11,553 bases of DNA from a virus (IMGVR_UViG_3300015179_000018:1-11553); one strand, 5' to 3'. Positions 1-11,553 are shown, counted from the first letter of the stretch. Notes: a model not told the origin generated them from the letters alone. Numbers and translations are program-made.

Positions 1-19
1 ACGTGTGCTCTTCCGATCT
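1..19. other. Sequencing adapter remnant (Illumina TruSeq-type, ...ACGTGTGCTCTTCCGATCT)
   Basis: Bases 1-19 read acgtgtgctcttccgatct, which is the 3' end of the common Illumina adapter/read primer sequence as I recall it. Not biological sequence. Confidence 0.85.
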
Positions 20-133
20 AAAACAAAGCCCGGCAATGCACTACGGTCACGGCTGGATCATGGGAGAGGATGGTAAACGCTGGCATCCATGTCATTCACA
101 AGATGAATTGCTGTCTGAATTGACCACGAGAAA

Positions 134-373
134 ATGGAGAAAGTCCAAATGTATGCGGCAGAAAGTGAAGTGGTTTATCAGTTTCGTTACAGAGGGGAGA
201 GTTATTCAGTACCTGAAGATGATTTGCTCTGTTGCTATCCGTCGTTGTCGGGCGATGGTAGCTACTTTTTCACGCTAAAGGATGGAACCTTTATACGTGG
301 TGAAAAAGTACAAGAAGTGATGCGTATAAAGACATCACCTCTTGAACGTTATCGGCGAAGTATTTATCGGTAA
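134..373 (+). CDS. Hypothetical small protein (79 aa)
   Basis: ORF in track, ATG start, ends TAA at 371-373, convergent with the 364-612 minus-strand ORF with about 10 bp 3' overlap. No recognisable motifs; AT-rich region. Weak RBS (gaga) upstream. Confidence 0.3.
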   Translation: MEKVQMYAAESEVVYQFRYRGESYSVPEDDLLCCYPSLSGDGSYFFTLKDGTFIRGEKVQEVMRIKTSPLERYRRSIYR

Positions 374-612
374 CGATCTATCAGTGTCTGTATCAGATGA
401 GTGAATTCTTGTTGTTTAACCGAACCTAAAGGAAGTTTGTTTAATTCTTCGCGGAGGAGCTCAAAAAATGCAGATTGATTTGCTGAGTCAGTTCGAAATA
501 AGGAGTGGATCAGACCTGAAACAAGAATTCGTTGAACAGCAACCTCATCGCGAAGACTGGAGATCTCGTTTTCAAGTTGCTCTAAACGCTCTCTTTCAAC
601 CGGGTTCAACAT
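364..612 (-). CDS. Hypothetical small alpha-helical protein (82 aa)
   Basis: ATG at 610-612 (minus strand) preceded by a good RBS (reverse complement of 616-626 gives AGAAGGAA, about 7 nt upstream). Protein has charged/hydrophobic heptad-like periodicity (ERERLEQLENEISSLRDEVAVQRILV). Function unknown. Confidence 0.4.
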   Translation of the reverse strand: MLNPVERERLEQLENEISSLRDEVAVQRILVSGLIHSLFRTDSANQSAFFELLREELNKLPLGSVKQQEFTHLIQTLIDRYR

Positions 613-693
613 TGATGATTCCTTCTAGCTATCAATATGTTGGTAATGGATCATATCAAAAATTTTTTAGTAGATGTGTTGTGGGATGCATAA

Positions 694-1035
694 ATGGCTA
701 TTGAAGGCGCTGCGGCGACTGTTCCATTAAGTCCCGGTGAACGCCTGAATGGACTTAATCACATAGCGGAATTAAGGGCGAAAGTTTTTGGCCTGAATAT
801 TGAGTCAGAGCTTGAGCGGTTTATTAAAGATATGCGTGATCCACGGGATATCAATAATGAACAAAATAAACGGGCACTGGCTGCCATATTCTTTATGGCA
901 AAAATTCCAGCTGAACGTCATAGCATCAGCATTAATGAGCTGACCACTGACGAAAAGCGGGAGCTGATTAAAGCAATGAATCATTTTCGTGCAGTGGTGA
1001 GCTTATTTCCCAGACGGCTAACCATGCCGAATTAA
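694..1035 (+). CDS. Hypothetical phage early-region protein (113 aa)
   Basis: ATG at 694; first gene of the + strand run that continues through the replication gene. No confident family assignment from sequence alone. Confidence 0.5.
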   Translation: MAIEGAAATVPLSPGERLNGLNHIAELRAKVFGLNIESELERFIKDMRDPRDINNEQNKRALAAIFFMAKIPAERHSISINELTTDEKRELIKAMNHFRAVVSLFPRRLTMPN

Positions 1036-1102
1036 CCAACTAATGAAATTAATGGCGTAAACCCGCCGGGCATCCCTTTATCTAAATTCAGGAGAATTGA
1101 TT

Positions 1103-1336
1103 ATGCGTAATATTGAAATCCTCACGACTAAAACCGGACCGGATGACGCAGGGCTTAATATTTTACTGACAGAGGCTCGTCTGGAAGAACGTCGGGCAAG
1201 GGCTGAAGCAATGGCAGCTCGCCTTGATAGCCTGGCGTGTCATATCACATCCCGCCAGCTAAACCACGTCGAAGCGGCAGAACTGCTGCGTGTAACTGCT
1301 GAAGCAATCCAGAACGAAGCGCAGGAGATCCACTAA
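1103..1336 (+). CDS. Hypothetical phage early protein (77 aa)
   Basis: ATG at 1103 preceded by AGGAGA (1090-1095); the ORF-track start at 1097 is a TTG two codons upstream. Stop TAA 1334-1336 overlaps the next ATG (TAATG), indicating translational coupling. Confidence 0.55.
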   Translation: MRNIEILTTKTGPDDAGLNILLTEARLEERRARAEAMAARLDSLACHITSRQLNHVEAAELLRVTAEAIQNEAQEIH

Positions 1337-1563
1337 TGGCTGATGCAATGGATCTCGTACAGCAGCGCGTTGAAGAAGAACGCCAGCGCCATATTCGTGC
1401 TGCCCGTGCCAAAACACCGGGCGTGTCTCGCGTGCTTTGTATTGAATGTGAAGCGCCAATTCCGCCAGCACGACGCCGCGCCATTCCGGGAGTGCAGCTT
1501 TGCATTACCTGCCAGGAAATCGCAGAGCTGAAAGGCAAACATTACAACGGAGGTGCTGTATGA
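1336..1563 (+). CDS. TraR/DksA-family C4-type zinc-finger protein (phage-encoded)
   Basis: 75 aa with two CxxC pairs (CIEC...17 residues...CITC), typical of TraR/DksA zinc fingers found in P2-like early operons. Stop overlaps the next start (ATGA at 1560-1563). Confidence 0.75.
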
Positions 1564-1862
1564 CAAGGGCAGTGCGTATCCATCAATTAAAAATTGCACC
1601 TAAGTATTTCAACGCTGTGGTTGCAGGTCAAAAGACGGCTGAACTTCGTAAAGACGATCGTGGCTATAAAGTTGGTGATGTTCTTTCTCTTTGCGAATGG
1701 AAGCATGGCGTATTTACGGGTAGGGAATGGGCCGCTGTTATCTCTCATGTGCTTCCGGTTAATGACGTCATGGCAGTTTCAGAACAATGGGTGATGCTAT
1801 CAATTCGCCCATTAACTCCATTAGAAGCTTTAGGATATGTTATTGCAGGAGGTGCTGTATGA
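1560..1862 (+). CDS. DUF3850/ASCH-like (PUA-fold) domain protein
   Basis: ATG at 1560 preceded by GGAGG. N-terminus ([37 protein letters not shown]) matches my recollection of the DUF3850 pattern (HELKIWPEYFEAV..GKKTFEVRKNDRDY.VGD). Stop overlaps Dam start (ATGA at 1859-1862). The same ggaggtgctgtatga string precedes both this gene and dam. Confidence 0.7.
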
Positions 1863-2716
1863 GTACCATCCTGAAATGGGCGGGTAATAAAACTGCCATT
1901 ATGTCCGAACTGAAAAAACATCTTCCTGCTGGCCCGCGACTGGTTGAACCTTTCGCGGGTTCCTGTGCTGTGATGATGGAGACGGATTACCCCAGCTATC
2001 TTGTTGCGGATATTAATCCTGATTTAATCAACCTCTATAAAAAGGTTGCTGCTGATTGCGAGGCGTTTATATCTCGTGCCAGAGCTTTATTTGAGGAAGC
2101 AAACAGGGAGTTGGCTTATTACAACATAAGGCAGGAGTTTAATTACTCCACTGAAATTACTGATTTCATGAAAGCGGTATATTTCCTGTATCTCAATCGT
2201 CATGGTTACCGTGGGTTATGTCGTTATAACAAGAGCGGGCATTTCAACATTCCATACGGTAATTATAAAAATCCGTATTTCCCTGAAAAAGAAATTCGCG
2301 CATTTGCAGAGAAAGCCCAGCGAGCAACGTTTATCTGCGCCAGCTTTGATGAAACGCTGGCGATGCTGCAGGTGGGGGATGTGGTGTATTGCGATCCGCC
2401 TTATGACGGTACGTTTTCCGGCTATCACACTGACGGCTTCACTGAAGATGACCAGTATCACCTGGCATCTGTTCTTGAATATCGATCATCAGAAGGTCAT
2501 CCAGTCATTGTTTCTAACAGTGACACATCCCTGATCCGTTCGCTGTATCGAAATTTCACTCACCACTACATCAAGGCAAAACGCAGCATCGGCGTGTCGG
2601 CTGGCGAGAGTAAATCTGCAACAGAAATCATCGCTGTTTCTGGGGCGCGCTGCTGGGTGGGATTTGATCCTTCGCGTGGCGTGGATAGTTCTGCCGTGTA
2701 CGGAGTGCGTGCATGA
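1859..2716 (+). CDS. dam: DNA adenine methyltransferase, Dam/D12 class (N6-adenine, likely GATC-specific)
   Basis: ATG 1859 with GGAGG RBS (1847-1851); the ORF-track start at 1787 is upstream in the same frame. N-terminal KWAGNK and FAGSCAV (AdoMet-binding FxGxG) plus catalytic DPPY (VYCDPPYDG) are hallmark Dam-family motifs. Stop TGA 2714-2716 overlaps gpA ATG 2713. Confidence 0.9.
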
Positions 2717-5127
2717 GCCATGCTGATATGAACAACTGCAGCGGCTTTAACGAGGCCGCCGCAGCATTCTCATGGAACAGCCCGAAAAAGGCTATTAACC
2801 CTTATCTGGACCCGGCGGAAGTTGCGCCGGTTTCTGCGCTTTCAAACCTGATCACTCTGTACGCTGCCGATAACGAGCAGGAACAACTGCGCCGCGAGGC
2901 ACTGAGTGATCAGGTTTGGGAGCGTTATTTCTTTAATGAATCCCGTGATCCTGTCCAGCGCGAAATGGAGCAGGATAAGCTCATTAGCCGGGCAAAGTTG
3001 GCGCATGAGCAGCAGCGTTTTAACCCGGACATGGTCATTCTGGCAGACGTTAACGCCCAGCCTTCCCATATCAGCAGGCCGCTGATGCAACGTATTGAAT
3101 ACTTCAGCAGCCTTGGCAGGCCAAAGGCTTATTCCCGCTATTTGCGTGAGACGATTAAGCCATGTCTGGAACGGCTGGAGCATGTACGCGACAGTCAGCT
3201 ATCCACTTCTTTTCGCTTTATGGCAAGCCATGAAGGGCTGGACGGCCTGCTGATCCTGCCTGAAATGAGTCAGGATCAGGTGAAACGCCTGTCCACCCTT
3301 GTTGCTGCGCATATGAGCATGTGCCTTGATGCAGCTTGTGGCGATTTGTATGCCACCGATGACGTTAAGCCAGAAGAAATCCGCAAGACATGGGAAAAGG
3401 TGGCAGCAGAAACCCTGCGACTGGATGTCATACCGCCTGCGTTTGAGCAACTCCGCCGGAAAAGAAACCGCCGTAAACCCGTGCCCTATGAACTCATTCC
3501 GGGTTCGCTGGCGCGTATGTTGTGCGCCGATTGGTGGTACCGGAAATTATGGAAGATGCGTTGCGAATGGCGGGAAGAGCAGTTGCGTGCTGTTTGCCTG
3601 GTCAGCAAAAAAGCATCTCCCTATGTCAGCTATGAAGCCGTGATGCATAAACGTGAGCAGCGCCGTAAGTCGCTGGAGTTTTTCCGTTCTCATGAACTGG
3701 TGAACGAAGACGGCGACACGCTGGACATGGAGGATGTGGTAAACGCCAGCAGCAGCAACCCTGCGCATCGCCGCAATGAGATGATGGCCTGTGTTAAAGG
3801 TCTGGAGCTTATCGCGGAAATGCGCGGTGACTGCGCCGTTTTCTACACCATCACCTGTCCGTCACGTTTCCATTCCACGCTAAATAACGGCAGGCCCAAC
3901 CCGACCTGGACAAATACGACGGTAAGACAAAGCAGTGATTATCTGGTCGGCATGTTTGCTGCATTTCGTAAGGCGATGCACAAAGCCGGATTGCGCTGGT
4001 ATGGCGTGCGGGTGGCTGAGCCGCATCATGACGGTACAGTTCACTGGCACCTGTTGTGTTTTATGCGCAAAAAAGATCGCCGCACCATTACTGCTTTGTT
4101 GCGTAAGTTTGCCATTCGTGAAGACCGCGAGGAGCTGGGTAATAACACGGGACCACGCTTTAAGTCTGAGCTGATAAACCCGCGCAAAGGTACGCCAACA
4201 AGCTACATCGCGAAATACATCAGTAAGAACATTGACGGGCGTGGTCTGGCTGGCGAGATCAGCAAGGAAACGGGTAAATCCCTGCGTGATAACGCTGAAT
4301 ACGTTAATGCCTGGGCGTCTCTGCATCGTGTTCAGCAATTCCGCTTCTTTGGCATTCCGGGGCGTCAGGCTTACCGTGAACTGCGATTGCTGGCTGGTCA
4401 GGCGGCAAGGCAACAGGGGGACAAAAAAGCAGGTGCGCCGGTACTGGATAACCCGCGCCTTGATGCAATCCTGGCTGCTGCTGATGCTGGTTGTTTTGCC
4501 ACCTACATCATGAAGCAGGGCGGCGTACTGGTTCCCCGCAAATATCACCTCATCAGAACTGCTTATGAAATCAACGAAGAACCGACCGCATATGGCGATC
4601 ACGGTATTCGTATTTATGGCATCTGGTCACCCATTGCAGAGGGCAAGATCTGCACTCATGCGGTGAAGTGGAAAATGGTTCGTAAGGCCGTTGACGTTCA
4701 GGAGGCGGCAGCTGACCAGGGCGCTTGCGCCCCTTGGACTCGTGGCAATAACTGTCCCCTTGCTGAAAATTTGAACCAACAAGGGAAAGACAAATCAGCT
4801 GATGGGGACTCCAGAACGGATATTACCCGTATGAATGACAAGGAGTTGCACGATTACCTGCACAGTATGAGCAAAAAAGAGCGCCGGGAACTGGCTGCAA
4901 GGTTACGCCAGGTGAAACCGAAACGGCGTAAAGACTACAAACAGCGAATTACAGACCATCAGCGACAGCAGCTCGTCTATGAACTGAGGTCCAGAGGATT
5001 TGATGGCAGCGAGAAAGAGGTCGATTTACTCCTTCGCGGCGGCAGTATTCCGTCAGGAGCAGGCCTGCGTATCTTCTATCGGAGCCAGCGTTTGCAGGAA
5101 GATGACAAGTGGCGGAACCTGTATTAA
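2713..5127 (+). CDS. A: Rolling-circle replication initiation endonuclease, P2 gpA family
   Basis: 804 aa. HUH motif ([10 protein letters not shown]) and paired active-site tyrosine motif (YIAKYISKN) typical of P2 gpA-type Rep proteins. Follows dam in a coupled operon, as in P2-like phages. Confidence 0.9.
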
Positions 5128-5196
5128 TTACGCGGGTTAACAATTAGTGCTCTTAATAATACCAGGCATATCAGGCTGATGAACGTAAAAAAACGT

Positions 5197-5239
5197 TTTA
5201 CATCAGTAAGATTATTATATACTGTAAATATAAACAGTG
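5197..5239 (+). promoter_or_regulatory. LexA (SOS) operator overlapping a candidate sigma70 promoter for the downstream small-ORF/DinI-like genes
   Basis: TACTGTAAATATAAACAGTG at 5220-5239 is a CTGT-N8-ACAG palindrome close to the LexA consensus TACTGT(AT)4ACAGTA. Candidate -35 TTTACA (5197-5202) and -10 TATACT (5218-5223) overlap the box. A strong RBS AGGAGG (5271-5276) precedes ATG 5281. Confidence 0.65.
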
Positions 5240-5280
5240 GTTATGTATACAGTGTTGCTTGTGGTGTCATAGGAGGAAAG

Positions 5281-5469
5281 ATGCAGGACTATTTTTTGGA
5301 GTCTTTGAAGCTCCAGCGCATTGATTTTTTTCTTAAGCTTGTAGCGGCTAGTGAGTGTAGTGATGAAGAGAAGGGGCTGGCTCTGCAGTGGGTTTCTGAA
5401 CTGACAGATGAACTCATGGCAAAAATCAGAACCCACGAATACAACCGCTCAATGGATGTCATCAGCTGA
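5281..5469 (+). CDS. Small SOS-inducible protein (62 aa), possible Tum-like antirepressor N-terminal module
   Basis: ATG 5281 preceded by AGGAGG and by the LexA box; the ORF-track ORF 5179-5469 extends upstream across the operator and so is too long. Function is inferred only from position before the DinI-like gene (phage 186 SOS operon analogy). Confidence 0.5.
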   Translation: MQDYFLESLKLQRIDFFLKLVAASECSDEEKGLALQWVSELTDELMAKIRTHEYNRSMDVIS

Positions 5470-5479
5470 GGTGACTTTT

Positions 5480-5713
5480 ATGCGCATTGAAATAATGATC
5501 GATAAAGAGCAGAAGATTAGCCAGTCTACACTGGACGCCCTTGAATCCGAGCTTTACCGCAATCTGCGCCCCCTGTATCCCAAAACGGTAATTCGTATCC
5601 GCAAAGGTAGCTCTAATGGTGTGGAACTGACCGGACTGCAACTGGACGAAGAAAGAAAACAAGTGATGAAAATTATGCAGAAGGTGTGGGAAGACGACAG
5701 CTGGCTGCATTAA
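5480..5713 (+). CDS. DinI-like protein (SOS/RecA modulator family; Tum C-terminal-like)
   Basis: 77 aa starting MRIEIMIDKEQKIS...LDALESEL...VWEDDSWLH; closely parallels E. coli DinI (MRIEVTIAKTSPLP...IDALAGEL...TWESADDWF) from memory. RBS GAGGTGA 6 nt upstream. Start is an internal ATG of ORF-track ORF 5408-5713. Confidence 0.85.
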   Translation: MRIEIMIDKEQKISQSTLDALESELYRNLRPLYPKTVIRIRKGSSNGVELTGLQLDEERKQVMKIMQKVWEDDSWLH

Positions 5714-5872
5714 GAAACGTTGCTGGCGTCTGAACTTGCTTCTGGCGTCAGCAAGGTTGAACAACGAGTACAGTGAGGCGTTAGGTGTGGCGTTTATTTG
5801 ATGAGTGAACGCCCGTTCTGCGACAGGTTCGGAGATTAAGGTTGAAACTACGGGAAAAATACCATCTTTTTC

Positions 5873-6298
5873 CTACTTAATTGAGTCCAGTAACAAGTTA
5901 CAGTTACTCTCATTGTAGAGAGAACGAGCAATTAGTGTTACCTGCTTTCCATTCATTCCCGGCTTATCCCATAACACAGCTTCTTGCGACGCCACAAATT
6001 CAGCATAATCAATTATGCGTTGTTCGTGATCTGGTTCCTCATAGCCAAAGTATGAGAGCGCATCGTTGTAAGCGTGGTAAGCTGCTTTCTGTAATATCTT
6101 GATATCGGCTGTAGGTACTTGCTCCGTGTAGCTAGGATCTAATTGTGTGCTACTGCCATAGAATGCACATGAAAGGTAAGATATTGATTTCTGTTGAGCT
6201 TTAGTTCCTTTCTCATAGTTTTTAGCTGTTACCGCCTGAACTGGGACGCTAACAAAGCTTGCAACCAGAATTAAAATTAATACGTAAAAGCTTTTCAT
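5873..6298 (-). CDS. Secreted/periplasmic protein of unknown function with N-terminal Sec signal peptide (141 aa)
   Basis: N-terminus MKSFYVLILILVASFVSVPVQA-VTAK: positively charged n-region, hydrophobic core, AxA-like cleavage site (VQA), no lipobox Cys. RBS GAGG upstream on the minus strand. Gene is visibly AT-richer than flanking phage genes. Confidence 0.7.
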   Translation of the reverse strand: MKSFYVLILILVASFVSVPVQAVTAKNYEKGTKAQQKSISYLSCAFYGSSTQLDPSYTEQVPTADIKILQKAAYHAYNDALSYFGYEEPDHEQRIIDYAEFVASQEAVLWDKPGMNGKQVTLIARSLYNESNCNLLLDSIK

Positions 6299-6571
6299 TT
6301 TGACCTCAGCCGAAACGTTAGAGAGACTATCGAAATTTGTAAAACCCGTGGCGATTCAGTTTGAGATCCTCCCCCTTACATGATTTTTAATCAAATATAT
6401 GCTTTTGTAAGCATACCTGTTAACCGAATTATTTATTTTTAGAGATCTTCCGACATACTGATTATGCCCGCTGAGGAGTTCACCTTGCGTAAAGTCCGAT
6501 TCGCTTTACTCGTCTGTGCATGTCTATACTGCATGAGATTGCATGATCGTTTGAGGATCGTTTTTGCTAAG

Positions 6572-6596
6572 GCCCGCCAGTTCTGGCGGGCTTTTG
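6572..6596 (+). terminator. GC-rich hairpin followed by T-run (intrinsic-terminator-like), + strand
   Basis: gcccgcca-gttc-tggcgggc perfect 8-bp stem followed by ttttg. No obvious upstream + strand gene; may terminate an uncharacterised transcript or be part of the cos/packaging region. Confidence 0.45.
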
Positions 6597-6640
6597 CGTA
6601 GATCATGCACCTGCATGAAAACCACTACATAAAGCGGGCA

Positions 6641-6659
6641 GGCGTGGCGGGGATACGAG
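6641..6659. other. Candidate cos (cohesive end) site of the P2/186 type
   Basis: GGCGTGGCGGGGATACGAG at 6641-6659 closely resembles the 19-nt cohesive ends I recall for P2 (GGCGAGGCGGGGAAAGCAC) and 186 (GGCGTGGCGGGGAAAGCAT). It forms a GC-rich island in an AT-rich intergenic region between the replication side and the portal/terminase side. Confidence 0.45.
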
Positions 6660-6811
6660 CGCGCGCTAAGTCATATAAGAGTTATATATTGATTTGATTG
6701 CTGGACATGCATACAGTATCGCTCTATCATCTAATAAATCTTAGAGTATTTGACAATGTTTGGATAAAATGGAACCTAACTTATTCATAATCCGCTAAAC
6801 AGGGATGTCAG

Positions 6812-7726
6812 ATGCCATACCAATTGGTAGAGCTTAGCCCCGTAGCTAACGATCTTGAACAGTTAGGAACCAAAGAGAAGTTTTGGTTCTATTTCTCCGA
6901 TGACACTGTAAATTTGCAGTTGTTTAAGTACTCTAGGCCAGGTACTGGCGAGCATTGGTCTGAAAAGTGTGCTGCTGAGTTATGTCATTTGCTTAACATT
7001 CCACATGCTAGCTATGATTTGGCGCGATACAATGGTCGATTCGGTGTGGTGACTCAGAATATCATTCCATCTGGTTTCCGGATGGTAATGGGAAATGAAG
7101 TGCTTCACAGTTCGACATTCGATTATCCTGGGCCTTTACAAGCCGGGGAAAAGCCGGTAAGGGTCAGAGAACACACTGTCACAAGGGTATTGGGTTGTTT
7201 GGATAGGGAATCTATCAAGCCTCCTCCGAGTGTATATGATCTAACCGGGCTAAATGCAGCAGATGTATTTTGTGGATATTTGATGCTCGATGCACTTGTG
7301 AGTAATCAAGATCGCCATCATGAAAATTGGGCGATCATGCTTAACAATGAAACTGGTGAGCAGTTTTTGTGTCCAACATACGATCATGCCGCTAGTTTAG
7401 GAAGGGAGATGTTAGATGATGAGCGTAACGAACGGCTTAATACTAAAGATAAAAATCGACAAATCCCATGTTTTGTAAGAAAAGCTCGCTCTGAGCTATT
7501 CAAAGCAAAAACTGATAAAAAGCCCTTGCTGACCGTTGAAGCATTTCAACATGCAGTTGAAGGGAGAGTTGCCGCTCGCGACCATTGGTTAGGTAAGTTG
7601 AGCGTTTTAACAGAAGATTCCATTACAGATGTGTTTAACCAAGTGCCTTCATCGTGTATATCCGACAGTGCACGTAGATTTGCAACGTTAATGGTAATGG
7701 AAAATCGCAGAAGGTTACTAGAATGA
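6812..7726 (+). CDS. HipA-family-like Ser/Thr protein kinase core (HipT-like, lacking HipA N-terminal subdomain); candidate toxin/defence effector
   Basis: 304 aa. Gly-rich loop LGTKEKF (res 18-24) resembles the HipA P-loop (VAGAQEKT). Catalytic-loop-like SNQDRHHENW (res 164-173, nt 7301-7330) fits the N-x-D-x-H-x-x-N pattern of HipA/CtkA kinases, with downstream YDHAAS as a putative metal-binding Asp. RBS AGGGA before ATG 6812. Stop TGA overlaps the next ATG (ATGA at 7723-7726). Confidence 0.6.
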   Translation: MPYQLVELSPVANDLEQLGTKEKFWFYFSDDTVNLQLFKYSRPGTGEHWSEKCAAELCHLLNIPHASYDLARYNGRFGVVTQNIIPSGFRMVMGNEVLHSSTFDYPGPLQAGEKPVRVREHTVTRVLGCLDRESIKPPPSVYDLTGLNAADVFCGYLMLDALVSNQDRHHENWAIMLNNETGEQFLCPTYDHAASLGREMLDDERNERLNTKDKNRQIPCFVRKARSELFKAKTDKKPLLTVEAFQHAVEGRVAARDHWLGKLSVLTEDSITDVFNQVPSSCISDSARRFATLMVMENRRRLLE

Positions 7727-8463
7727 CTAATACAAACTCCGTTTACGTCGCATGGCAGGCACCAGATACCAGAGACTGGCATGTTGTTGGTAACTTGCAA
7801 GAGCGCAAATCGGGGTATGTTTTCAGGTATACCAAAGGTGCTCTTAAATCTACTAAATTTACAAAGTTTAGCGGCATGAGTGATGTTCGTGAAACTTATG
7901 TTTCGGAAGAATTGTTTCCTCTTTTTAAAAATCGCCTTTTATCACCGAGACGTCCAGAGTATCCGAGTTTCATTAAATGGCTTGGATTTGAAGAAGATAA
8001 GGTAAATCCTATCGATATTCTTGCTCGCTCGGGAGGCTTACGAAGCACTGATCAGCTGCAGATTTTCAAAAAAATTGATGTTGATTCTGATGGTAACTTT
8101 GAGCATTTTTTCTTCTTACATGGACTTGGTTACTTAAATAGCTTAGCTAATGCTCGTGTATCTGAATTGAAACCGGGGCAAATTTTGCGTCTTTGCTTGG
8201 ATCTTCAAAATGAATACGATGGGGATGCTGTTGTCGTTCGTGCAGATAAACCAGCTGAAATCGTTGGTTACTGCCCCAGGTATTTAAGTAATGATATCAA
8301 GAAGATGTTATTGGATGATCCAAAATCAATCACTTTAACGGTCGAAAAGATTAGCGATGATGCTCCTCATAACTATCGGTTATTATGTAAATTATCAGGA
8401 GTACTAAGCCAAGCCTGTCAATCGACGCTGATTCCTCAGGATGAGTTTGAACCTATTGAGTAA
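7723..8463 (+). CDS. Kinase-partner protein: N-terminal HipA-N/HipS-like region plus C-terminal HIRAN-like domain (tentative)
   Basis: 246 aa, translationally coupled to the kinase gene. C-terminal segment GLGY...LRLCLDLQNEYDGDAVVVRADKPAEIVGYCPRYLSNDIKKMLLD parallels the HIRAN signature (VGLRYY...LQRDPNNPYDKNAIKV...VGHLKKELAGALAYIMD). The N-terminal 110 aa (VYVAW..VVGNL..YVFRY..LFPLFKNRLLSPRR..ILARSGG) loosely resembles the HipA N-terminal subdomain. Both by eye only. Confidence 0.6.
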   Translation: MTNTNSVYVAWQAPDTRDWHVVGNLQERKSGYVFRYTKGALKSTKFTKFSGMSDVRETYVSEELFPLFKNRLLSPRRPEYPSFIKWLGFEEDKVNPIDILARSGGLRSTDQLQIFKKIDVDSDGNFEHFFFLHGLGYLNSLANARVSELKPGQILRLCLDLQNEYDGDAVVVRADKPAEIVGYCPRYLSNDIKKMLLDDPKSITLTVEKISDDAPHNYRLLCKLSGVLSQACQSTLIPQDEFEPIE

Positions 8464-8471
8464 ATGAAGAA

Positions 8472-8497
8472 AAGCCACCAAACGGTGGCTTTTCTTA
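8472..8497. terminator. Bidirectional intrinsic terminator between the convergent cargo operon and portal gene Q
   Basis: aagccacc-aaac-ggtggctt hairpin (8472-8491) with T-rich tract on the + strand (tttctt) and, on the reverse complement, ttttctt after the same stem. Lies exactly between the stop at 8463 (+) and the stop at 8498 (-). Confidence 0.6.
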
Positions 8498-9535
8498 TTA
8501 TGGGACTATATCTAGCGAGTAGGTATTAAACTGTATCGCCTCCTTGCCAAGCCAATCATTCATCTCCTGTAATCGCTTTTGTAGTGGCATTAGTTCATTT
8601 CGCACAAAAACTCGACTCGCCTTCTCTACATCCCCAAACCCACCGACATTATTAGGCATAATCCCCATCATCTGAGGCGGTACGCGGTGTGCAGCCATCA
8701 TGTCGTCCCGGCTCACGTTCTTGATGTTCAGAAATTCATCTTTCGCTGCGACTTCTGACAACGGGATGATCTGAAGCCCGTCCTTTTTGCCGTTAGGCGA
8801 GTACATAAACAGGTTGCGGAAGTTGCCAGGGCCTTTGGCGCTTTTCATCGCGTTGCGGAGGTTGTTCACATCTTCCTGGTTCTGCGCGGCGTCGGTCATA
8901 TACATGATGAAGCCTGCATGACTGCCGTTAATGTAATACTTGCGGCGGAACAGCGTGGCAGACTCGTTGAGCAGGGCGGATGGAATAGCAGAAAGATAAC
9001 CGGGCAGGCCGTAGATCTCCTGGTTGATGTCCGGTTCCATCAGATGAAAGATGCTGCCTTTCGTGAACTGATATGGCTGCGTGGTCATACCGTATTGCAC
9101 AAACCAGTAGGTATCCAGGTCTAACCCGCGTCGGGTGTATTTTGCCAAGGCAGGTTCAAGGGCGATAACTTCACCGAAGCGGTTCGTGCGTTTCTCCAGG
9201 TAGGCGTTACCAAATACCAGATAGTCCTGCACAAAACGCGAAAAAGCCTGCTGGCTGAGCAGCGGGTGAGGGATGTAGGTGCTGGTCAGAATGTTGCACT
9301 TTACTGCAATCGGGGAACTATGATGAACGGCAGCGCGGAAGGTGCGCGCCAGTCCGTCAAAGCTGACGGGCGGCTCATACCAGCGGTCCATCTGTACGCA
9401 TTCCACATAATCCAGCAGTTCTCGGCGGTCCAGAACAGGAACGGGATCGCCGAAGCTGAATGCTTCGGCTGTAGTTTGACTTTTAAGCTGGATCTGTTTC
9501 GTCGCCGCAGCGCGGTTCTTCTTACTCTTTCCCAT
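8498..9535 (-). CDS. Q: Portal protein (P2 gpQ family)
   Basis: About 345 aa, minus strand, immediately downstream of and overlapping (TGATG) the terminase ATPase gene, the conserved P2 P-Q arrangement. ATG at 9533-9535 with GGAG RBS; the ORF-track start at 9538 is a TTG one codon upstream. Confidence 0.88.
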   Translation of the reverse strand: MGKSKKNRAAATKQIQLKSQTTAEAFSFGDPVPVLDRRELLDYVECVQMDRWYEPPVSFDGLARTFRAAVHHSSPIAVKCNILTSTYIPHPLLSQQAFSRFVQDYLVFGNAYLEKRTNRFGEVIALEPALAKYTRRGLDLDTYWFVQYGMTTQPYQFTKGSIFHLMEPDINQEIYGLPGYLSAIPSALLNESATLFRRKYYINGSHAGFIMYMTDAAQNQEDVNNLRNAMKSAKGPGNFRNLFMYSPNGKKDGLQIIPLSEVAAKDEFLNIKNVSRDDMMAAHRVPPQMMGIMPNNVGGFGDVEKASRVFVRNELMPLQKRLQEMNDWLGKEAIQFNTYSLDIVP

Positions 9536-11301
9536 CAAAAAATCTCCACAATATTGCTGGTATTGGCGGATTCGCCCTGCAGCGGTTCGTTAAACAGTGC
9601 GTGCATCGTTGCCCAGGCCAGATCGGCGTGGCTGGCTTCTTCGCTGCGGCTGGCTTCATAGGTCGGGCGGTTGCCACTGGCGGTGGTGGCGCGACGGATT
9701 GCCATAAAGGACTGCGCTATGTCGGTGTGTCCGGCGTCAAACTCCAGACGGCGGTGGCTGATAATGTCGTAGGCCTTGAGTACCAGGGCGTTTTTAACGT
9801 TGGGGTTGTAGACAAACTCCCGGACGGCAGGAAAAAACGCTTTCACGTTCTCGTAAACCCCGTGACCAACGCCGGTTGAGTCGATACCGATATAGGTCAC
9901 GTTGTACTGTTCGGTCAGTTTTTTGATGGCGTCAGCCTGGGCGCGGAAGTCCATTCCGCGCCACTGGTGACGCTCAAGAATGCGGAACTTACCGCCCGGC
10001 ACGGCTGGCGGCGCCACCACCACGCATCCGGCGCTGTCGCCGTTCTGCGTACCTTTCGCCGGGTCATATCCGATCCACACTTCGCGCCAGCCAAACGGGC
10101 GCAGGGCCAGTGCATGAAAGTCGGTCCAGACTTCCCAACTGTCCACCATGCACGCCTGCAGCTCGCTGAGTGGGAACACAGACGCGAGATCGTCCACGAA
10201 CTCACACATCAGCAGGTTTTGGTATTCGTCCGGGCTGTACTCCATGCGCAACTGGTCGAGGTCGAACAGGTTACAGCCGCCGCGCACCGCATCTTCCACA
10301 GTGACTATCTGGCGGTACTGCCCGTCTGCGCACAGCAGGCCGGGGGCCAGATTGCTGTGGGACAGGTCGATGTCCACCTTATCGGCTTTGTTGCGCCCTC
10401 GGTTGAACAGCGCACCGGACCAGAACGGATAAGCACTGTGTGTCAGGCTGGATGGCGTGGAAAAATAGGTTTGTCGCCATTTTTTGTGAATAGCCATACC
10501 GGAAGCCACTTTGCGCAGCTCCTGGAATTTCGGTATCCAGAAATATTCATCCAGATACAGGTTGCCGTGGTAACTCTGGGCCGTGCGGGCATTGGTGCCG
10601 AGGAAGTACAGCGTGGCCCCGTTAGGAAGCACCATCGGATCGCCTTTCAGCTCCACCTCCACTTCTTTGGCGAAGTCGATGATGTACTGCTTAAAGACGT
10701 GGGCCTGAGCCTTGCTGGCGGAAAGGAAAATCTGGTTACGCCCGGTTAGCAGGGCGTCAATCAGGGCTTCACGGGCAAAATAGAAGGTCGCGCCGATCTG
10801 GCGTGACTTCAGCAGGTTGCGGATGCGGTTGGTTTTTCCGGCTTCCCACCAGTGGCGCTGGTAGTTGAACATGGAGGAATGGAAGATTTCTTCCAACTTC
10901 TCAATCTGTTCATCGGTGAAAACGTTCTTTTCCGGCTGACGGCGCGGGCCTTTGTTGCGGTTGGCGACGTTAGGGTTTAAGTCGGCTTCGTTGCCGCCAT
11001 TGTTAAACTTGCCGATCCGCGCATGGCGCTCCGACTGGCGCGCCAGCAGGTCAATCTCTTTGAAATCTTTCCCTTCTTTGTGCTCCTTCATAATGAGCTG
11101 GCAGTAGCGTGCGGCGGTGGTGAGCTGCATCTGATCCAGCGGCCCATAGTCACCCCACTTGTCGCGTTTTTTCCAGCTGTGAACGGTTGCAACTTTCTCG
11201 CCCAGCATTTCAGCAATGCGAGCTACGCGGTATCCCTGAAAGTACAGCAGCATGGCCTGCCGACGGGGATCGAGATCTGCGGGTGTCAGTGTGGTGTTCA
11301 T
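9535..11301 (-). CDS. P: Terminase large (ATPase) subunit, P2 gpP family
   Basis: 588 aa, minus strand, divergent from the O start. N-terminal HTH-like segment (LLYFQGYRVARIAEMLGEKVATVHSWKKR) typical of terminase DNA-binding N-termini; size and position match P2 gpP. The true start could be the internal ATG at 11251-11253 (M17). Confidence 0.88.
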   Translation of the reverse strand: MNTTLTPADLDPRRQAMLLYFQGYRVARIAEMLGEKVATVHSWKKRDKWGDYGPLDQMQLTTAARYCQLIMKEHKEGKDFKEIDLLARQSERHARIGKFNNGGNEADLNPNVANRNKGPRRQPEKNVFTDEQIEKLEEIFHSSMFNYQRHWWEAGKTNRIRNLLKSRQIGATFYFAREALIDALLTGRNQIFLSASKAQAHVFKQYIIDFAKEVEVELKGDPMVLPNGATLYFLGTNARTAQSYHGNLYLDEYFWIPKFQELRKVASGMAIHKKWRQTYFSTPSSLTHSAYPFWSGALFNRGRNKADKVDIDLSHSNLAPGLLCADGQYRQIVTVEDAVRGGCNLFDLDQLRMEYSPDEYQNLLMCEFVDDLASVFPLSELQACMVDSWEVWTDFHALALRPFGWREVWIGYDPAKGTQNGDSAGCVVVAPPAVPGGKFRILERHQWRGMDFRAQADAIKKLTEQYNVTYIGIDSTGVGHGVYENVKAFFPAVREFVYNPNVKNALVLKAYDIISHRRLEFDAGHTDIAQSFMAIRRATTASGNRPTYEASRSEEASHADLAWATMHALFNEPLQGESANTSNIVEIF

Positions 11302-11347
11302 GGCACAAACCTACAGCCTTGAATGAAGGCTTTCCCCGCCTGCGGTT

Positions 11348-11365
11348 TGTGTGGTTGTCGGTACA
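11348..11365. promoter_or_regulatory. TGT-N12-ACA dyad, candidate Ogr/Delta-type late-promoter activator site in the P/O divergent region
   Basis: TGTgtggttgtcggtACA at 11348-11365. P2-family late promoters carry a TGT-N12-ACA element centred near -55; the centre here is about 88 bp upstream of the O start codon at 11444. Confidence 0.4.
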
Positions 11366-11443
11366 AATACCGCGCATTGTTTCACTGCCCCCATCACCGC
11401 AACCATAAGGCTCCAGTAAGTTTTTTCTAACGGAGCACGGCTC

Positions 11444-11523
11444 ATGACAGTGAAAGCAAAGCGTTTTCGCATCGGGGTGGAAGGTGCCACCACCGACGGA
11501 CGCGAAATCCAGCGTGAATGGCT
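11444..11523 (+). CDS. O: Capsid scaffolding protein (P2 gpO family), 5' fragment truncated by adapter
   Basis: ATG 11444 after GGAG (11432-11435). Translation MTVKAKRFRIGVEGATTDGREIQREW resembles the gpO N-terminus (KFFRIGVEGDTCDGR) as I recall it; divergent from P as in P2. The reading frame runs into adapter sequence at 11524. Confidence 0.6.
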
Positions 11524-11553
11524 AGATCGGAAGAGCGTCGTGTAGGGAAAGAG
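11524..11553. other. Sequencing adapter remnant (reverse complement of Illumina universal adapter, AGATCGGAAGAGCGTCGTGTAGGGAAAGAG)
   Basis: Exact match to the well-known AGATCGGAAGAGCGTCGTGTAGGGAAAGAGTGT adapter prefix. Not biological sequence. Confidence 0.9.

Follow-up and report, generated by a model that had tools for sequence, protein, structure and literature searches.

A HipI-type kinase and its HipS-HIRAN partner in the variable gpA-gpQ locus of a P2-like prophage

Introduction

The viral DNA stretch IMGVR_UViG_3300015179_000018:1-11553, of 11,553 nucleotides (nt) and hereafter called the window, carries two adjacent plus-strand genes which encode a HipA-fold kinase of 304 amino acids (aa) and a partner protein of 246 aa. 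The closest described organisation is hipIN, defined by Gerdes, Baerentsen and Brodersen (mBio 2021; PMC8262856), in which the kinase HipI is accompanied by HipN, composed of a domain resembling HipS and a HIRAN domain. It was proposed there that the HipS-like domain neutralises the kinase and that HIRAN may recognise DNA ends, provided by invading phages or replication intermediates, leading to abortive infection. Both the architecture and the DNA-end-sensing hypothesis are therefore already published, and the module is described and experimentally uncharacterised. In a 2025 paper in Nucleic Acids Research (NAR) the HipI-HIRAN pair is still called 'predicted'. The same pair of proteins is found in the PADLOC database as the candidate system PDC-M03 (A, HipA-like; B, HIRAN). 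No validation of PDC-M03 was found in the literature, where one naming paper merely lists the system. The Millman 2022 preprint contains no HIRAN or HipA system, the word match being in its reference list alone.

The best studied relative is HipBST of E. coli O127:H6, composed of the antitoxin HipS, the kinase HipT, whose target is TrpS, and a third, helix-turn-helix (HTH) protein, HipB. HipS is a single domain of about 100 aa encoded upstream of the kinase, and it neutralises HipT by direct contact at the Gly-rich loop, Trp65 being the blocking residue (PMC10627512). In contrast, the partner studied here has 246 aa and two domains, is encoded downstream of the kinase and is not accompanied by HipB. 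The HipL kinases (Gerdes 2021) unite the kinase core, the HipS-like part and HIRAN, in the order seen here, in a single fused polypeptide, whereas in the window the gene break falls after the kinase core. CtkA of H. pylori (JHP0940, PDB 3akj) is related to the kinase with an identity of just 16% and differs in being described as a secreted proinflammatory kinase. CapK/CapS, a DNA-damage-activated kinase system (EMBO J 2026), was considered and rejected as a relative, being an anti-sigma-factor-type kinase with a STAS partner and not a Hip/HIRAN pair.

Results

The gene pair and its resemblance to hipIN

The features of the two genes are the following.

6812-7726, plus strand: hipI-type gene encoding 304 aa, a Ser/Thr kinase core of the HipA fold lacking N-subdomain 1
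Kinase residues 17-24: Gly-rich-type loop LGTKEKFW
Kinase residues 164-173: catalytic loop SNQDRHHENW, in which D167 aligns with HipA D309
Kinase: YDHAASLGRE motif, in which D191 aligns with HipA D332
7723-8463, plus strand: hipN-type partner gene, 246 aa (PADLOC PDC-M03B, phrog_8026)
7723-8070, plus strand: HipS-like domain (resembling HipA N-subdomain 1), partner residues 1-116
8101-8406, plus strand: HIRAN domain, partner residues 127-228
Partner residues 181-187: VGYCPRY motif of the HIRAN domain

The 246-aa protein is identified with high confidence as a HipN, paired with a kinase of the HipI type. The latter has the HipA fold, conserved catalytic motifs and an intact active site. It matched PADLOC PDC-M03A over the full length (E=2.1e-122), and the partner, encoded by the adjacent gene, matched PDC-M03B, also over the full length (E=3.4e-93). 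The partner matched phrog_8026 with E=2e-136; in PHROGs the kinase and the partner each belong to a family of unknown function, and no NCBIfam model matched either protein. In comparison with hipIN (PMC8262856), the kinase is similarly short (304 aa here, 279-321 aa there), it is devoid of N-subdomain 1, its Gly-rich loop lies close to the N-terminus, and the cassette is bicistronic without HipB. A HipS-like part and a HIRAN part in a partner directly downstream of a short kinase were all three tested for and found. The kinase is likened to HipI, a subclade of main clade XI in that paper, by length, loop position and gene organisation.

The coordinates, the 246-aa length and the kinase-first gene order given in the initial annotation proved correct on reading of the sequence. 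The architecture had been called unusual there, which did not hold: it is the published HipN/hipIN type, is covered by PDC-M03 and phrog_8026, and is represented by 319 clusters at 50% identity (E<=1e-30).

The HipS-like half of the partner

The resemblance of the N-terminal half to HipS and to the N-subdomain of HipA, suggested in the initial annotation, was borne out by profile, model and fold evidence. The Pfam family Couple_hipA matched the partner with E=0.018, which is under the Pfam threshold, and was matched independently by 28 of 36 family members (best E=7e-4). The AlphaFold2 model, built from the 36 homologues, had a pLDDT of 89 and a pTM of 0.84; in it, residues 1-116 are predicted to form four beta-strands, then three helices, then one more strand. 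The same order of strands and helices is given for HipS in the HipBST paper (PMC10627512). A search of the PDB by sequence with the whole partner, its profile and the C-terminal half returned just a marginal HIRAN match (3k2y, E=0.28) and noise, therefore a comparison of folds was needed. Foldseek against the PDB returned both folds: after the HIRAN domains, the next match was HipS (7ab3_E, probability 1.0, TM 0.70 normalised to HipS), followed by HipA. The domain carries the invariant motif ELFPLFxNRLL...RPEY...RSGGxRxTD.

Residues 20-72 of the partner aligned with HipA 11-65 and kinase residues 153-194 with HipA 295-335, both weakly (E=0.085 and E=0.044, respectively; hhalign against a single HipA sequence). 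The pairwise alignment of partner 1-120 with HipA 1-120 was not above shuffles (z=1.1). The HipS-like assignment is thus confirmed at the level of predicted fold and profile, without direct sequence resemblance. Pairwise similarity to HipA at chance level and Couple_hipA matches under the Pfam threshold would be expected also if the HipS likeness were coincidental and the partner were a stand-alone HIRAN DNA-repair factor lying beside the kinase by chance. This explanation was rejected as very improbable due to the fold searches and the near-universal linkage (see below) to a kinase which lacks exactly that subdomain. In the favoured explanation, the second gene would supply in trans the N-subdomain 1 that the kinase lacks, fused to HIRAN.

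The HIRAN half of the partner

The C-terminal HIRAN domain had likewise been named in the initial annotation, and the assignment stood. PF08797 matched partner residues 127-228 above the curated threshold (E=1.1e-13) and was matched by all 36 aligned homologues. The top Foldseek matches in the PDB were the HIRAN domains of HLTF and lp_0118, with E of about 1e-5 to 1e-4, and the domain has the beta-barrel fold of HIRAN. The pocket motif of the domain, D160-L-Q-N163-E-Y165-D166-x-x-A169, is conserved; N163, D166 and A169 are invariant in it. Partner Q162/N163, in Q-N-x-Y-D-x-x-A, correspond to N90/N91 of HLTF, in N90-N91-P-Y-D-K-N-A.

The nearest HIRAN systems are HLTF/Rad5 and the stand-alone bacterial lp_0118 (PDB 4s0n, 4xzg, 6l8o, 3k2y). 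The HLTF domain binds the 3'-OH of single-stranded DNA ends, and the binding is abolished by the N90A/N91A substitution (PMC11237066). In eukaryotes, fork reversal is served by proteins that combine HIRAN with SNF2 translocase and RING ligase domains. The HIRAN of the partner differs in its fusion to a putative kinase-docking domain, and its DNA binding is predicted.

The transcription unit

The kinase and the partner form a discrete transcription unit with the following elements.

6702-6730, plus strand: candidate sigma-70 promoter TGGACA-17-TATCAT, about 80 nt before the kinase start, 10/12 consensus matches
7723-7726, plus strand: ATGA overlap of the kinase stop (TGA) and the partner start (ATG), read from the sequence
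8467-8496, both strands: predicted bidirectional intrinsic terminator hairpin, from sequence and RNA folding
6566-6597, plus strand: GC-rich inverted repeat followed by TTTT, 15-nt arms with 87% complementarity, from the repeat search

The ATGA overlap suggests translational coupling of the two genes. The hairpin lies in the 34 nt that separate the hipN stop from the 3' end of the portal gene, which is convergent, and has a perfect 13-bp stem, an AAAC loop and T-rich tails on either strand. Its folding energy was -21 kcal/mol (z=-7.1), which was equalled by none of 200 shuffles. The consensus terminator scan of the window did not pick up this hairpin, which is nevertheless likely to act as a terminator in both directions. 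The promoter at 6702-6730 is a weak candidate, as the count of promoter-like sites in the consensus scan was no higher than in shuffles. The inverted repeat at 6566-6597, about 215 nt before the kinase start, may insulate the cassette from upstream transcription or may be the remnant of a neighbouring cassette.

No HipB-like HTH gene was found in the cassette by open reading frame (ORF) reading and Pfam, and no operator-like direct or inverted repeats were found between 6600 and 6811 by the repeat search. Type II antitoxins usually bear an operator-binding domain, and the absence of HipB would therefore suit a plain addiction (post-segregational killing) module which stabilises the prophage without phage sensing and in which HIRAN autoregulates the operon in place of HipB. 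The location on a mobile element agrees with such a role. However, the region upstream of the kinase offers no operator-like repeat, and the characterised HIRAN domains read DNA 3' ends, not specific sequences. The defence hotspot and the restriction-modification (R-M) association of the relatives, both described below, also point to defence, and an addiction module is considered clearly unlikely.

Conservation and spread of the pair

The partner family, of about 246 aa, comprises 535 clusters at 90% identity. In an exhaustive search covering 1.84 billion representatives, 1649 (E<=1e-3), 1012 (E<=1e-10) and 319 (E<=1e-30) clusters at 50% identity were obtained; nearly all members had 240-265 aa and matched end to end. 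The gene neighbourhoods were studied in a sample of 80 genome loci from Gammaproteobacteria, Betaproteobacteria, Verrucomicrobiota, Planctomycetota, Cyanobacteria, Nitrospirota, Campylobacterota and others. The kinase lay immediately upstream on the same strand in 71 loci. The two genes overlapped in 59 of these 71, and the 4-nt ATGA junction was present in 41, across phyla. The kinase and its partner are therefore a conserved coupled operon.

Just 21 of 5426 complete E. coli genomes carry hipIN, a rare accessory module. A pair of HipA-like and HIRAN genes in the same order adjoins the integrase in the Vibrio phage 10N.286.55.A12_PE001 (L084:10953-12646), a corticovirus-like element of 14 kb, and in the Clostridioides phage phiCDKH02 (L085:3092-4681), a C. 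difficile phage of siphovirus size which is unrelated to the Vibrio element. Finding integrase-adjacent pairs in two temperate phages that are unrelated indicates that such pairs have been captured repeatedly as prophage cargo. Equivalent pairs were found also on cyanobacterial and actinobacterial plasmids.

The prophage locus

By its gene content, the window belongs to a P2-like prophage. The flanking genes are the following.

2713-5127: gpA replication endonuclease (Pfam Phage_GPA, E=7e-127)
Between gpA and the low-GC island: DinI-like gene
8498-9538, minus strand: portal gene (gpQ), convergent to the partner gene
9535-11301, minus strand: large terminase gene

The order of genes is gpA, the DinI-like gene, a low-GC island, portal and large terminase. 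A near-identical region (99.6% identity) is found in E. coli LR-71-1 within a full prophage, which is complete with integrase and CI, gpA, and then capsid, tail and lysis genes. The GC content of the island (5750-8500) was 39-44%, compared with 50-60% for the flanking replication and packaging genes, which fits a recent arrival of the cargo by horizontal transfer. The ORFs of the island are a minus-strand ORF of 141 aa, the kinase and the partner.

The kinase-partner pair is accessory cargo in the variable gpA-gpQ locus of the P2-like prophage. The gpA-gpQ locus beside cos is the P2 defence hotspot, the home of old and tin in P2 (Rousset et al.), and the three hotspot systems validated in that study differ from the kinase-partner pair. 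The 14 modules sampled in PMC8262856 were presented with no mention of prophages, in contrast to the hotspot cargo described here. The presence of hipIN in the P2-like gpA-gpQ hotspot and its integrase-side recurrence in unrelated temperate phages are new, as are the kinase-less genes inside type I R-M operons described in the next section.

HipS-HIRAN genes without a kinase

Nine of the 80 loci had no adjacent kinase, one of the nine being cut by a contig end. No Hip kinase was present within 6 kb of the kinase-less genes, and the neighbours were confirmed by Pfam, except at L058, where the context was judged by eye.

L031, 6010-6756: in a type I R-M operon, HsdM-HsdS-[HipS-HIRAN]-HsdR
L073, 6004-6762: HsdS-[HipS-HIRAN]-HsdR
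L059, 1135-1899: [HipS-HIRAN]-HsdR
L076, 6004-6744: beside HsdM and a 1470-aa UvrD-like ORF
L036, 5956-6732: directly after an SNF2 helicase
L043, 5832-6581: near a type ISP R-M enzyme
L058, about 1865-2605: kinase-less HipS-HIRAN gene

Such genes are not mentioned in PMC8262856 and could not have been seen there, since that survey began from kinases. It is possible, and is proposed here tentatively, that HipS-HIRAN is a portable adaptor sensing DNA 3' ends for varied effectors and not just an antitoxin of HipI. The effector would mostly be a HipA-type kinase, and in a minority of cases an R-M operon, an SNF2 or UvrD-like motor, a type ISP enzyme or a nuclease-like tail. If this is true, the HipS fold would be a docking module for proteins in general, and bacterial immunity would share HIRAN as a sensor of infection or DNA damage.

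Some irregular members of the family were noted as well. P0255 (408 aa) has a C-terminal extension of about 180 aa after HipS-HIRAN, with a weak match to pPIWI_RE_REase (restriction-endonuclease-like; E=0.0017). P0275 joins secretin to HIRAN and appears to be a chimera arising from assembly or gene calling. The database names of several members of the partner family read 'restriction endonuclease'.

Proposed mechanism

The coupling of a DNA cue, via HIRAN, to the control of the kinase had been put forward in the initial annotation; it is the same hypothesis as that of PMC8262856 and is plausible. We somewhat favour a mechanism in which hipIN, as defence cargo of the prophage, acts through an antitoxin that senses DNA ends by its HIRAN domain. 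The HipS-like domain would dock on the kinase beside the Gly-rich loop and keep the kinase inactive. HIRAN would bind free 3'-OH DNA ends arising in phage infection, for which injected linear genomes, replication or recombination intermediates and degraded host DNA are candidates. The binding would release or activate the kinase, which would then phosphorylate an essential host factor and stop the growth of the infected cell, i.e. cause abortive infection. Because HipA and HipT target aminoacyl-tRNA synthetases, an enzyme of this type is the default guess for the target.

The direct binding and inhibition of HipT by HipS provide the precedent for the proposed docking, and the aligned segments of the partner (20-72) and the kinase (153-194) map complementarily on HipA (11-65 and 295-335). 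The defence role is supported by the P2 hotspot, the PADLOC listing, and the phage and R-M neighbourhoods.

Several points weigh against this mechanism. That the HipS-like domain docks on the kinase is itself inferred. The HipS-like fold is not inhibitory per se, because the equivalent subdomain of HipA belongs to the active enzyme, and the inhibition by HipS needs Trp65, for which no clear equivalent was identified in the partner. In the ungapped HipA-based register, partner S74 and R76 fall at the positions of HipS Glu63 and Trp65; the invariant R77-P78-E79-Y80 near that position is a candidate counterpart. Nor is the N-domain an antidote to kinases in the strict sense, because HipS-HIRAN genes occur without a kinase in type I R-M operons. 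Finally, the searchable literature contains no experiment in which a hipIN was assayed for toxicity, neutralisation, binding to DNA or defence against phages.

The same observations bear on an alternative in which the partner is an obligate activating or targeting subunit. The HipS-like domain would here complete the HipA-like fold and be needed for kinase activity, while HIRAN would tether the holo-kinase to DNA 3' ends, the substrates being proteins associated with DNA, for example factors of phage replication or recombination. N-subdomain 1 is integral to the active HipA kinase, and its structural equivalent is HipS (PMC10627512). The inhibition by HipS is a specific wedging of Trp65, which has no clear counterpart in the partner. 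A stoichiometric assembly of two subunits would also be suited by tight translational coupling, and the kinase-less genes beside HsdR, SNF2 and UvrD-like motors suggest an adaptor or targeting role. However, the sole separate HipS studied experimentally is an antitoxin (PMC10627512), and HipT, like other short Hip kinases, is toxic by itself, which indicates that the subdomain is not needed for activity. A constitutively active assembly would, moreover, need another control, and none is visible in the cassette. An activating subunit is thus regarded as unlikely.

If the mechanism of a sensing antitoxin is true, hipIN would be a compact immune module of two genes, with HIRAN, a eukaryote-like reader of DNA ends, gating a persistence-type kinase. 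The HipA toxin family would thereby be linked to nucleic-acid sensing, and a first function would be given to bacterial HIRAN domains. The copy in the E. coli P2 hotspot is a convenient, directly clonable case for the published hypothesis. The main value of the present analysis lies in confirmation and context, i.e. the hotspot and the spread among temperate phages, with the R-M-embedded kinase-less copies as a lead.

Further features of the window

Within the window: Dam methylase gene
5873-6298, minus strand: ORF of 141 aa encoding a clear signal peptide of the Sec type (MKSFYVLILILVASFVSVPVQA); phrog_7437, function unassigned there

The hotspot location is expected to adjoin cos. The P2 cos 19-mer, GGCGAGGCGGGGAAAGCAC, was not found in the window (1-11553) at up to 3 mismatches. 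As the gap between hipN and the portal gene is just 34 nt and the 19-mer is absent, the cos site of this prophage is divergent or located elsewhere.

The 141-aa ORF had no match in Pfam, PADLOC or NCBIfam. This stretch is absent or replaced in other E. coli prophages with the same hipIN (74% or 71% coverage), and the ORF therefore looks like separate cargo.
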